Shown: positions 46,718 to 52,050 of the stretch, piece by piece
Position numbering within the stretch: the stretch's first letter is position 1
Layout of the letters: each line of letters opens with the position of its first letter
From: Dictyostelium discoideum
Taxonomy: Eukaryota
DNA: 64,000 nt
Direction: 5' to 3'
Assembly: GCA_000004695.1 (NCBI GenBank)
Contig: CM000153.2
Span: forward strand, 3,200,001 to 3,264,000
Translations under genes and position numbers: made by a program
The notes under the pieces: generated by a model
The model's input: only the letters and a program-made list of their open reading frames with translations
Database searches by the model: none
What the model was told of the DNA's origin: nothing

Positions 46718-46901
46718 ATAGTAAAATTAATTTAATTCAAAAAAAAAAAAAATGAAAAAAAAAAAAAAAATAATAATTAACAATGTACCCATAATTTTAA
46801 AAATAAATAAATAAAAAAAAAAACAAATAAATTATAAAATAAATTACACACAAAAACTATTTTATTTAAATATTATTAAAATTTATTTTTAAAAAATCAT
46901 T

Positions 46902-48617: not shown

Positions 48618-49270
48618 TATTTATATGTTTTGAGTGATTTCTTCTTTGTTTTTTATTTTTTTTTGAGCTAAAAATAAAAAAAAAAAAAAAAAAAAAACTT
48701 TGAAAAAAAAAAAAAAAAATCAAGGAGATCGAGCTGATCAGTTTGCTTTTTTTTTTATCAATAATTTTATTTGAAAAATTGTAAATTTACAATTGTAGGG
48801 GATCGAGCTAATCAGTTTATTTTTTTTATTAATATTTTTTTTTTTAAAATTATTTTATTGTGAATTTTTTTTTTTTTTTTAAATTAAAATAATAATAATT
48901 TCAATAAATTAGAAAGAATAATAATAATTAATATTGAAAATTTAATTAGTAATTTTAGTTTACTTCAATCAATTAGAACTTCAAAAAAATTTATATAAAA
49001 AAAAAAAAGAAAATAAAAAAAAGAGTTTATCAAAAATAAAATAAATAAACAAAAAAAAAAAGTTTATCAAAATTAAAATAAATAAAAAAAAAATTTGTTT
49101 AGAAAAAAAAAAAAAAAAAAAGTCAGTCAAAAAAAAAAAAAAGTGACTCATGCTTAGGGCCAAAAAAAAAAAAGAAAAAATTCAAAAAATTCAAAAAAAA
49201 AAAAATCAAAAAAGATGAACTTTTTGAATTTTTTTTATTATTATTATTGTAAATAGTAACAACAATCACA

Positions 49271-49957
49271 ATGAATAAATTTTTAATTGCATTATTGGTA
49301 TTAGCCACATTAGCAGTTTCATTTTCACAAGAAATTGGTGTTTCAATTTTAAAAACTGATACACCAAAAGGTGAATGTAAAGGTAAAACTGCCTCAATTG
49401 GTGATTATATCAGTTTAAAATATGTTGGTAAATTCGAAGACGGAACTGTCTTTGACTCCTCTGAGATTCACGGAGGTTTCAGCTTTAACTTCACCATTGG
49501 AGAACGTAAGTTAGTTGTACAAAAAAGTAAAATATAAAAAATAAAAAAAAAAAGATATTGACACCAAAAATAAATAAATGAATAAATAAAAATTATAAAA
49601 TATATAGGTAAAGTTATTCCAGGTTTAGAGATTGGTACAATTAATATTTGTGAAGGTGAAAAACGTTCAATCAAGATTCCATATCAATTAGCATACGGTG
49701 AAAATGGTATTGAAAATGCAATTCCACCACGTACAGATATTTATTTTGATTTGGAGGTTGTTTCAATCGAAGGAGCACCAGCTCAACCATTTTATTATCA
49801 ATTAATTCCATCAGTTGGTACCATCATTGCTTTTTCAATGTTAGCTGGTTTCATAGTTTTAGTTAAATTCATCATTAAACGTTATCCAGATGAATCAAAT
49901 TCTAAAAAACCAGCCCCAGGTAAACCAAAGAAAACAAAAGCAGCAAAACAAAACTAA
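49271..49957 (+). CDS. FKBP-type peptidyl-prolyl cis-trans isomerase with signal peptide and C-terminal TM anchor, exons 49271-49505 and 49608-49957
   Basis: MNKFLIALLVLATLAVSFS signal peptide. GDYISLKYVGKFEDGTVFDSS...IPPRTDIYFDLEVVSIE FKBP fold. C-terminal TM helix IIAFSMLAGFIVLV and a basic tail. GTAAGT donor, TATATAG acceptor (phase 1). Confidence 0.8.
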
Positions 49958-50587
49958 AATAAATAAATAAATAAATAAAAAATACAACTATCAAGATAAT
50001 AAAATCAAATAATTTTTTCATTAATTTATTTATGAATATTTTTAAAAAGTTTAATTCTATAAATTATTGATTAATAAATTCTTTGCATTAATGCATTGAT
50101 CCTAATCTATCTGAATTATTATTATTATTATTATTATTATTTCCTACTCTCAAAATAAAAAAATAATTAGAAAAAAGAATGATAAATAATTAAATTCTAA
50201 AGAAAAAAAAAAAAAATTATGATGAAGTAAGTTAAAAAAATAAAAATATAAAATAAAATATAATAAAAAATAATAATTAATTAAATTTAAAAATAGATTA
50301 ATCAATAAATAAATAAATAAATGAACAAATAAATGAAAAACTTTGTTTTTTACACTGCCAACGCGCAAAATGACAACGTAACCCCTGTAAGCGGCTAATA
50401 GCCCTGTAAGACGAACAGACGGATTTTTGGGATATTTTGGAACACTGTTGTAAGGTTTACAGGGGTTATGTAGTCATTTAAATTGATCCACTAAGTTGGT
50501 GCAGTGAAATTAAATGATAAGTGAGGAAATCAATTAATTCTGTTTGATAATAATAATAATAAAAATAATAATAATGAGTAAATAAAT

Positions 50588-50916
50588 AAATGAATAAATA
50601 AATAAATAAAAATTATAAAATATATAGGTAAATTAGAAGATGTAATTATCTTTGATTCGTCAGATTTACATGGCGCGGCTTTAATTTCACACGTACAGAT
50701 ATTTACTTTGATTTGGAAGTTGTTTCAATCGAAGGAGCACCAGCTCAATCATTTTATTTTCAATTAATTCCATCAGTTGGTACCATCATTGCTTTTTCAA
50801 TGTTAGCTGGTTTCATAGTTTTAGTTAAATTCATCATTAAACGTTATCCAGATGAATCAAATTCTAAAAAACCAGCCCCAGGTAAACCAAAGAAAACAAA
50901 ACTAAAACTAAAATAA
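50588..50916 (+). pseudogene. Internally deleted, frame-disrupted duplicate of the FKBP gene 3' part (pseudogene)
   Basis: 50575-50627 repeats the FKBP intron tail (...ataaatgaataaataaa...aattataaaatatatag). It then carries an exon-1-like segment (GKLEDVIIFDSSDLHGAAL, compare GKFEDGTVFDSSEIHGG) fused out of frame to the last about 210 nt of the FKBP CDS, which is about 95% identical. Confidence 0.55.
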
Positions 50917-51051
50917 AACTAAAATAAATAAATAAATAAAAACACAATTATCGAGATAATAAAATCAAGTAATAATTTTTTCATTTATTTATGAATATTT
51001 TTAAAAAAGGTTAATTCTATAAATTATTGGTTATTTAATAAATTCTTTACA

Positions 51052-52050
51052 TTAATCCATTGATTCTAATCTATCTGAATTATTATTATTATTATTATTA
51101 TTATTATTTCCCAAGATCGGCCTAAATAAATTATCATTTTCATTATCATTATTGCTAATATTTATTGATTCACTTAAGTCATCAATTGAATTACTATTTA
51201 CAATACTATTTCCTCCATCGCTACTATTTATACTATTATTTATATTATTTATATTATTATTATTATTATCAATACTAATATTATCAATTATATTATTATT
51301 TATATTTTTATTTATTGGACTATTATCATTTATTCCAATACTAGTTGAACCACTACTGCCACCACTACCACTACCACTTGCAATATTATTATTATTATTA
51401 TTATTATTATTGGTATTGTTATTATTATTATTACCACTTGATAAAATTTGATAAGAATTTGAATTTTGAAATAAATTATGAACTATTGGTAATAATCTTG
51501 TACCACTAATTGAAATTGATAATAGGGAGAAGAAAACAAAGATTATCCAAAATACGCTTAACCAATTTGGTAAATAACTTAGATGATGTAAATTTAAGAG
51601 GAATCCAACTGTTGATTTCTCCATACCAATTGCATTTCTACAGAATCTATAGATTCCACCTGTCAATGCCATGAACAATAATAAGAAGAAAATAACCGAT
51701 CCATAACGATGATGATATTCACGCATTGATTGTGGTATCCATCTACTACGACTTGTTAATTTACCAGTTCTACTACCAAATAGTGGATTGTAAATCATTG
51801 AATATCCAAATACAACCAATGCTACACATAGAATCATCAATAGAAATGTATATACAACTTCACTATTTTCAAATAACCATGACATTTGATGAATCTTCAT
51901 TAAAAATGATACCTTTTCTTTTGGAATTCCAAATCCATCTCTTAATATTTTATATAGTAATCCTGTTATCATTGTTGTCATCAATGGTAATATTATTGTA
52001 TACGCTATATACCTATGAAGTATCCTTTTATTCCAATACATTCTACCCAT
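51052..52050 (-). CDS. Multi-pass membrane protein with four PepSY-TM-like 'R/K-x-hxH-[RHQ] + helix' repeats and a poly-N/S C-terminal tail
   Basis: KRILHRYIAYTIILPLMTTMITGLLY, MKIHQMSWLF...LLMILCVALVVFGY, MREYHHRYGSVIFFLLLFMALTGGIY and LLNLHHLSYLPNWLSVFWIIFVFF. Each has a conserved His just before a TM helix. Single exon. Confidence 0.5.
   Translation of the reverse strand: MGRMYWNKRILHRYIAYTIILPLMTTMITGLLYKILRDGFGIPKEKVSFLMKIHQMSWLFENSEVVYTFLLMILCVALVVFGYSMIYNPLFGSRTGKLTSRSRWIPQSMREYHHRYGSVIFFLLLFMALTGGIYRFCRNAIGMEKSTVGFLLNLHHLSYLPNWLSVFWIIFVFFSLLSISISGTRLLPIVHNLFQNSNSYQILSSGNNNNNNTNNNNNNNNNIASGSGSGGSSGSTSIGINDNSPINKNINNNIIDNISIDNNNNNINNINNSINSSDGGNSIVNSNSIDDLSESINISNNDNENDNLFRPILGNNNNNNNNNNSDRLESMD

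Follow-up and report, generated by a model that had tools for sequence, protein, structure and literature searches.

The genes fkbp3 and DDB_G0285739 converge on chromosome 4 of Dictyostelium discoideum AX4, and the DNA where they meet contains two direct copies of one segment, separated by a spacer that holds a GC-rich palindrome. We analyzed this junction within a 64 kb stretch of the chromosome (the window; coordinates are those of the window unless another assembly is named), following up an earlier note that had described a single duplication of ~0.55 kb, an FKBP pseudogene formed by it, and an anomalous GC-rich island between the copies. The duplication is segmental, as that note proposed, but it is old, multi-step, and polymorphic between strains rather than one recent 0.55 kb event, and two other D. 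discoideum assemblies (L005 and L006) share the part that covers the 3′ untranslated region (UTR) and the tail of the neighboring gene. The island is likewise real: an orphan palindrome restricted to one lineage, of which AX4 is the sole carrier among the D. discoideum assemblies compared. It is young, and most likely it is neither a dedicated gene nor an active transposon but a structural by-product.

The Two Copies Form an Identity Mosaic

The segment that had been placed at about 49565–50150 and again at about 50585–51112 is indeed repeated. A gapped alignment spans ~49567–50148 (copy A) and ~50580–51113 (copy B), a length of ~530–580 nt, and it includes a block of 212 nt with 98% identity (49728–49939 versus 50690–50901) and a block of 71 nt with 96% identity (50071–50141 versus 51035–51105). 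The direct repeat is confirmed and lies far above chance. Copy A (49567–50148, + strand) consists of the fkbp3 intron tail, exon 2, the 3′ UTR, and a decayed 3′ end of the neighbor (50088–50148, with its coding sense on the − strand). The spacer that follows (50149–50579) is AT-rich except for the island. Copy B begins with a copy of the fkbp3 intron tail (50580–50628, + strand), which is ~96% identical to 49568–49612, and its last portion (50690–51113, + strand) comprises the 3′ part of exon 2 (to 50916), a copy of the 3′ UTR, and the true 3′ end of the neighbor (from 51052).

Between these two portions of copy B, a 65 nt piece derived from fkbp3 exon 1 (50627–50691, + strand; GKLEDVIIFDSSDLHGAALIS) stands in place of the initial ~125 nt of exon 2. 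This piece matches exon 1 at 49427–49494, which encodes GKLEDVIIFDSS..., with a score ~7 standard deviations above that of shuffled sequences; it is 74% identical to the AX4 exon and 81% identical to exon 1 of D. citrinum. It is flanked on both sides by microhomologies (GGTAAA on one, TTCAC/TCCAC on the other). The identity between the copies is therefore a mosaic, with ~96% in the intron tail, 74% in the exon 1 piece, 98% in exon 2, and 90%–96% in the UTR. The earlier account of the repeat as intron tail, exon 2, 3′ UTR, and neighbor end holds overall, but not for the 65 nt in the middle of copy B, which come from exon 1.

Copy B is frame-shifted relative to fkbp3, and its exon 1 piece and exon 2 piece are in different frames. 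It lacks most of the FKBP domain and has no intact parental reading frame. It had been called an internally deleted, frame-shifted pseudogene; the frameshift and the degeneracy stand, but copy B is not simply deleted, as the exon 1 piece is in place, and it carries an AX4 annotation, DDB_G0285457. The tail of the neighbor has decayed in the other copy. Copy A has TTAATGCATTGATCC at 50088, whereas copy B has the genuine end, TTAATCCATTGATTC, at 51052, exactly as had been quoted.

These features resemble those of a lineage-specific tandem segmental duplication with a truncated pseudogene: there are two direct copies, the identity is a mosaic, and the redundant halves have decayed in a complementary manner. 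Deletions at microhomologies and a structure that is polymorphic between strains are further points of likeness. The junction differs from this class in that ~430 bp of unrelated spacer, with a palindrome, separates the copies. A simple duplication also cannot give the order seen in copy B, in which the intron-tail copy lies upstream of the exon 1 piece. We compared the spacer with the upstream region and exon 1 of fkbp3 and found only low-complexity matches, and a comparison of the spacer with an inverted copy of the UTR and neighbor tail was unconvincing (z ~1.8–2.5).

Part of the Duplication Predates the Split between D. discoideum Strains

We compared the orthologous locus across nine assemblies: D. 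citrinum (L001), two assemblies of D. cf. discoideum (L002 and L008), D. purpureum (L003), P. violaceum (L004), D. dimigraforme (L007), D. firmibasis (L011), and two other assemblies of D. discoideum (L005 and L006). In the seven assemblies other than L005 and L006, a single fkbp3 is followed by the neighbor after ~140–340 bp, and no duplication was found at the orthologous locus in any of them. The single copy is the ancestral state in the outgroups.

L005 and L006 are intermediate. They contain the duplicated 3′ UTR and neighbor tail only, with a distinct spacer of ~190 bp, and their locus has neither the fkbp3 pieces of copy B nor the island. The A copies of AX4, L005, and L006 have derived bases in common (GCATTGATCC and a 5 nt deletion); the B copies cluster with the outgroups. 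Because the A and B copies are each orthologous between AX4 and L005/L006, the duplication of the UTR and neighbor tail predates the split between the strains. The A copy of the neighbor in L005 has an internal deletion and reaches deeper into the gene, as far as ~51247 on the AX4 numbering; the unit that was first duplicated was thus larger than the part that survives.

The fkbp3 part of copy B also appears to be ancient. The exon 1 piece retains the TCAGA.TTACA states of D. citrinum, D. dimigraforme, and D. purpureum, which have been lost from fkbp3 itself in AX4 and in L005/L006, and we therefore conclude that copy B is old and that exon 1 was formerly part of it. Within exon 2, the ancestral base persists in copy B at both of the sites that are changed in copy A (49744 and 49756), and two changes are private to copy B. 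The spacer differs in orientation as well as in content: AX4 50147–50260 matches the reverse complement of L005 5041–4946 with a score of 81 (shuffled sequences, 53.9 ± 7.5), which indicates that the spacer carries an inversion between the strains.

Copy B Is Annotated as a Hypothetical Gene

The AX4 gene model DDB_G0285457 (Q54N79, a hypothetical protein of 86 aa), mapped onto the window, occupies 50219–50916 on the + strand. Its exon 1 is ATGATGAA (50219–50226), its exon 2 is 50664–50916, and between them lies a predicted intron of 437 nt (50227–50663; GTAAGT...CAG), midway along which the island is placed. This intron is about three times as long as a typical Dictyostelium intron. The model bypasses the fkbp3-derived acceptor that was copied at 50626–50627, the use of which would lead to an immediate stop codon, and instead uses an atypical acceptor (GATTCGTCAG) that lies beyond that stop. 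We infer that DDB_G0285457 is probably a pseudogene derived from fkbp3, and that the gene model is a computational rescue, an artifact of annotation.

The Island Is an Imperfect Palindrome with a Stable Fold

The island is a 154 bp imperfect palindrome (50353–50506) that forms a 24 bp stem on the + strand, which is also the strand of fkbp3 and DDB_G0285457. Its GC content is 43.5%, falling to 38.9% when the wider interval 50341–50520 is taken. The earlier figure of ~45% for that interval was thus too high, and the description of it as extreme needs qualifying: the island is GC-rich, within the top ~1% of 150 nt windows, but coding DNA elsewhere in the window equals it. The inverted repeat is perfect, as had been noted, but it is 12 bp rather than 11 bp long (TAACCCCTGTAA; 50379–50390 and 50457–50468), and its arms are 66 nt rather than ~95 bp apart. 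It is the longest inverted repeat in the 64 kb among those whose GC content is 40% or above and whose loop does not exceed 200 nt. It forms the core of the larger palindrome, the arms of which (CACTGC(A)CCAAC...AAATGAC...TAACCCCTGTAA) align with indels.

An outer stem pairs 50353–50362 with 50495–50506, and the 24 bp stem pairs 50368–50392 with 50455–50479; on the + strand, the 24 bp stem includes two G-U pairs and is interrupted by a single A-A mismatch. The central 62 nt contain direct repeats, with CCCTGTAAG and GGATNTTTTGG each present twice. The motif reported as reiterated does recur, but CCCTGTAAG occurs only twice in exact form, accompanied by two variants. When 200 nt (50341–50540) were folded and compared with shuffled sequences, the z scores were −3.8 for the + strand and −4.7 for the − strand. 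For the 154 nt palindrome at 37°C, the + strand was the better of the two (−52.3 versus −44.7 kcal/mol), as it was for a 117 nt hairpin at 22°C (−0.51 versus −0.39 kcal/mol/nt). If transcribed, the + strand hairpin is, on the basis of this modeling, a plausible substrate for Dicer.

In keeping with the earlier description, the island has no open reading frame: there are stops in all six frames, no ATG-started frame crosses it, and a peptide search found no protein relatives of its longest open frame. No sequence like it was found elsewhere in the 64 kb or in the related loci that we retrieved, at the level of DNA or of six-frame translation, and it was found in none of the nine orthologous loci, L005 and L006 included.

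Two shorter resemblances concern the L005 spacer. A GC-containing piece of 32 nt (L005 5024–5055) aligns with the center of the island, within 50403–50443 (p ~0.014, uncorrected), and a 10-mer (TTGTTTTTTA) lies upstream in both AX4 and L005. Together, these hint at a possible growth of the palindrome on site, from a seed that was already there.

A Model for the History of the Locus

We suggest that the locus is an unstable AT-rich junction at which fkbp3 and DDB_G0285739 converge. In this model, a tandem duplication within the D. discoideum lineage would have taken in at least the body of fkbp3 from the middle of exon 1 onward, the 3′ UTR, and the 3′ end of the neighbor. The redundant half of each copy would next have decayed, which in copy A was the neighbor tail and in copy B the fkbp3 sequence. 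The mosaic of today could have arisen through deletions at microhomologies, an inversion, and, later and perhaps recently in AX4, a gene conversion that re-homogenized the intron tail and exon 2. In the strains represented by L005 and L006, the fkbp3 portion of copy B would have disappeared. The island may have been captured in the spacer, or local duplications, direct and inverted, may have built it up on site while the locus was being rearranged. In AX4, the annotation spans the wreck with a start codon and a 437 nt intron, yielding the hypothetical 86 aa product of DDB_G0285457.

We consider the chances about even that the island is non-conserved foldback DNA, gained as the unstable spacer was rearranged. 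Several observations weigh against this view. Foldback repair usually copies nearby sequence, and nothing in the 64 kb or in the related loci resembles the island in DNA or peptide sequence, even when all six frames are compared. A GC content of 43.5% is odd for noncoding DNA in Dictyostelium. The alignment of the possible L005 seed is marginal, its p value of ~0.014 being uncorrected for multiple tests. The near-perfect 24 bp stem and the greater stability of the + strand are also what would be expected of a selected hairpin RNA. Finally, the position of the intron tail upstream of the exon 1 piece requires an ad hoc step of conversion or template switching.

Alternative Origins of the Island

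A mobile element is the most probable of the alternatives, although we think it unlikely. The island could be a small non-autonomous DNA transposon of the miniature inverted-repeat transposable element (MITE) or foldback type, with terminal inverted repeats of ~40–50 nt and internally repeated binding motifs; in that case it would have entered the spacer within the AX4 lineage. Like MITEs and foldback transposons, the island is short (a compact 154 bp), has inverted-repeat arms at its ends and internal motifs that are reiterated in both orientations (CCTGTAA occurs three times directly and once inverted, and GGATNTTTTGG twice), and is present in one D. discoideum assembly and absent from others; its GC content is also well above that of the neighboring noncoding DNA. 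It differs from them in that inspection of its ends (TTTTTTA/CACTGCC...GCAGTG/AAATTAA, with slashes at the borders) revealed no target-site duplication of 2–9 bp, and no second copy was found in the 64 kb window or in ~110 kb of related dictyostelid loci, the nine orthologous loci included. Its arms also differ by a 4 nt versus a 15 nt indel. The CACTG termini are unlike those of known Dictyostelium DNA transposons, and they fit neither Tc1 (CAGTG with TA) nor CACTA elements. Nor do they fit Tdd-4 and Tdd-5 (Ginger2), which have TGTNR termini and a 5 bp target-site duplication (PMC2836005); the island has neither. The suggestion that the island is the footprint of a DNA transposon thus gained no positive support beyond the presence of the arms.

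A second alternative, which we regard as quite improbable, is that the island is a young microRNA (miRNA)-like locus, in which a + strand transcript from the DDB_G0285457 intron or from read-through of fkbp3 would be diced by DrnB. The + strand falls within the limits used for miRNA hairpins (below −0.2 kcal/mol/nt, with at least 60% of the duplex paired): its 24 bp stem has one mismatch, and its −0.51 kcal/mol/nt at 22°C is close to the −0.53 to −0.60 kcal/mol/nt of published D. discoideum miRNA hairpins. Both of the transition differences between the arms give G-U pairs on the + strand and A-C oppositions on the − strand, but this asymmetry rests on two sites, and two of two falling on one strand has a one-in-four chance. 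Dictyostelid miRNAs are young and nearly all species-specific, and they are intergenic or intronic, with some derived from repeats (PMC6161686, PMC11014262). The island resembles the ddi-mir precursors described in those two studies in its long stable hairpin, its restriction to one species, its intergenic or intronic site, and its energy per nucleotide. In contrast to these precursors, its terminal loop is large and branched (62 nt, which is atypical of such hairpins), the upstream DNA lacks a T-tract start-site motif, and it is absent from the published loci, insofar as no 9- to 11-mer of the island occurs in the legible parts of the miRNA tables and hairpin lists of PMC6161686, PMC4894637, and PMC11014262. 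More specifically, a newborn miRNA-like locus might have been formed by local inverted duplication within the intron of DDB_G0285457, which would itself be a newborn chimeric gene assembled from fkbp3 debris, with L005 and L006 keeping the pre-hairpin seed; we hold this version to be more doubtful still.

It is very improbable that the island is a conventional small structured noncoding RNA gene on either strand, such as a small nuclear RNA, a small nucleolar RNA (snoRNA), an RNA of the class I type, or an RNA polymerase III transcript. A GC-rich island amid AT-rich noncoding DNA is the usual signature of such genes in this genome. In addition, the − strand has a weak A-box-like element (CTTAGTGG), a B-box-like element (GTTCG), and a run of four T residues past the stem, and the + strand has, by eye, an Sm-like sequence (GAUUUUUGG). 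Against these resemblances, a scan with Rfam 15, at the gathering threshold for the whole window and at E values up to 10 for the island, gave no match that reached the gathering threshold anywhere in the 64 kb. The comparison of the island with Rfam that the earlier note had proposed thus identified no family; its best match was GlsR6, a model of a Giardia C/D snoRNA, with 13.5 bits versus a threshold of 75 bits (E = 1.3). ARAGORN found no tRNA or tmRNA in the window. Of the C (RUGAUGA) and D (CUGA) boxes that accompany the terminal stem of a box C/D snoRNA, the island has only AUGACAA and no D box. A comparison of the syntenic locus in nine relatives, all of which lack the island there, argues against a conserved RNA at that position.

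The likeness to class I RNAs (the DdR-21 family) was examined with a covariance model that we constructed on 27 curated class I RNAs of D. discoideum. Class I RNAs have the motif CCTTACAGCAA (PMC7919456), and the island resembles them in having CCTTACA-type motifs on the − strand beside a stem, one of which (CCTTACAACAG) matches the class I motif at 9 of 11 positions, and in having a similar GC content. It differs in its score: 50416–50460 on the − strand reached 7.1 bits (E = 9.8) and ranked 57th of 58 noise-level matches, whereas the published minimum is 15 bits. It also lacks the GTTGAC...GTCAACTG stem and is of the wrong size. No class I RNA gene was found in the 64 kb, in which the best match was 13.5 bits. 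The Dictyostelium upstream sequence element (DUSE; [AT]CCCA[CT]AA), expected ~60 nt upstream, does not occur near the island; there are 8 in the window versus ~10 expected by chance, the nearest of them at 46787, 3.5 kb away. The k-mers of the island are not in the class I set or in the D. discoideum box C/D snoRNA supplement (PMC8817022), nor were they found in full texts on miRNA, snoRNA, class I RNA, and small RNA. The proposal of a structured noncoding RNA thus found no positive support in family models or in the published miRNA and snoRNA lists.

Two further candidates were rejected. Telomerase RNA was considered on account of a TTACAGGG-like motif, but Dictyostelium telomeres are of the form A-G(1–8), and an essential RNA would not be lacking in sister strains. 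Resemblances to U4, U6, U1, and U2 that were seen by eye had no support from Rfam.

An assembly artifact or foreign (bacterial or vector) DNA, which the contrast in GC with the flanking sequence might suggest, is the least credible origin, as blastn searches of 20,395 E. coli genome records and 72,556 plasmids found no match, exact-pattern scans of viral contigs and of prokaryote genome contigs were likewise negative, and the flanks are continuous with the annotated reference chromosome, where AX4 gene models span the region. The only matches to the island in exact-pattern scans of metagenomes were two contigs, L009 (1782–1872) and L010 (2281–2361), which contain palindromes with the GTAACCCCTGTAAC arms of the island; these contigs are GC-rich and of bacterial type, the remainder of their sequence is unrelated, and the match of the arms is probably a coincidence.

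Flanking Genes

The functional gene fkbp3 (FKBP3_DICDI, Q54N80) lies at 49271–49957 on the + strand, with exon 1 at 49271–49505, an intron at 49506–49607, and exon 2 at 49608–49957. The reading frame obtained by splicing the two exons is 100% identical to the AX4 FKBP3 protein at NCBI. The convergent neighbor, DDB_G0285739, lies at 51052–52050 on the − strand and encodes 332 aa without a Pfam domain.

Two further observations concern fkbp3 and the DNA upstream of it. In exon 1, at ~49472–49489, AX4 has GGAGGTTTCAGCTTTAAC where L005 and L006 have GGGGGCGCACCATTTAAT (GGFS versus GGAP). This amounts to 8 changes in 18 nt, whereas exon 2 is 98%–99% identical between the strains, and the cluster has the appearance of a micro-conversion or of a multinucleotide change. 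In the AT-rich DNA upstream of the gene, a GC-containing 24-mer, AGG(A/G)GATCGAGCT(G/A)ATCAGTTT, occurs twice (48723–48746 and 48797–48820), with the copies 74 bp apart; it may be a promoter or regulatory element.

Discussion

At present, the main yield of this work is a point of annotation: DDB_G0285457 is best read as a pseudogene derived from fkbp3, with a gene model that skips over junk. The junction of fkbp3 and DDB_G0285739 is also a hotspot of structural variation among D. discoideum isolates.

The wider meaning of the island depends on its nature. If it proves to be multicopy, a small foldback element would join the short list of Dictyostelium DNA transposons. The origins of dictyostelid miRNAs are unclear. 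If the palindrome is expressed and diced, a datable hairpin, together with a sister strain that lacks it, would allow the origin of a miRNA to be studied directly, and if it is indeed a newborn hairpin-RNA locus, it would offer a snapshot of the de novo birth of a small RNA and of a gene in Amoebozoa.

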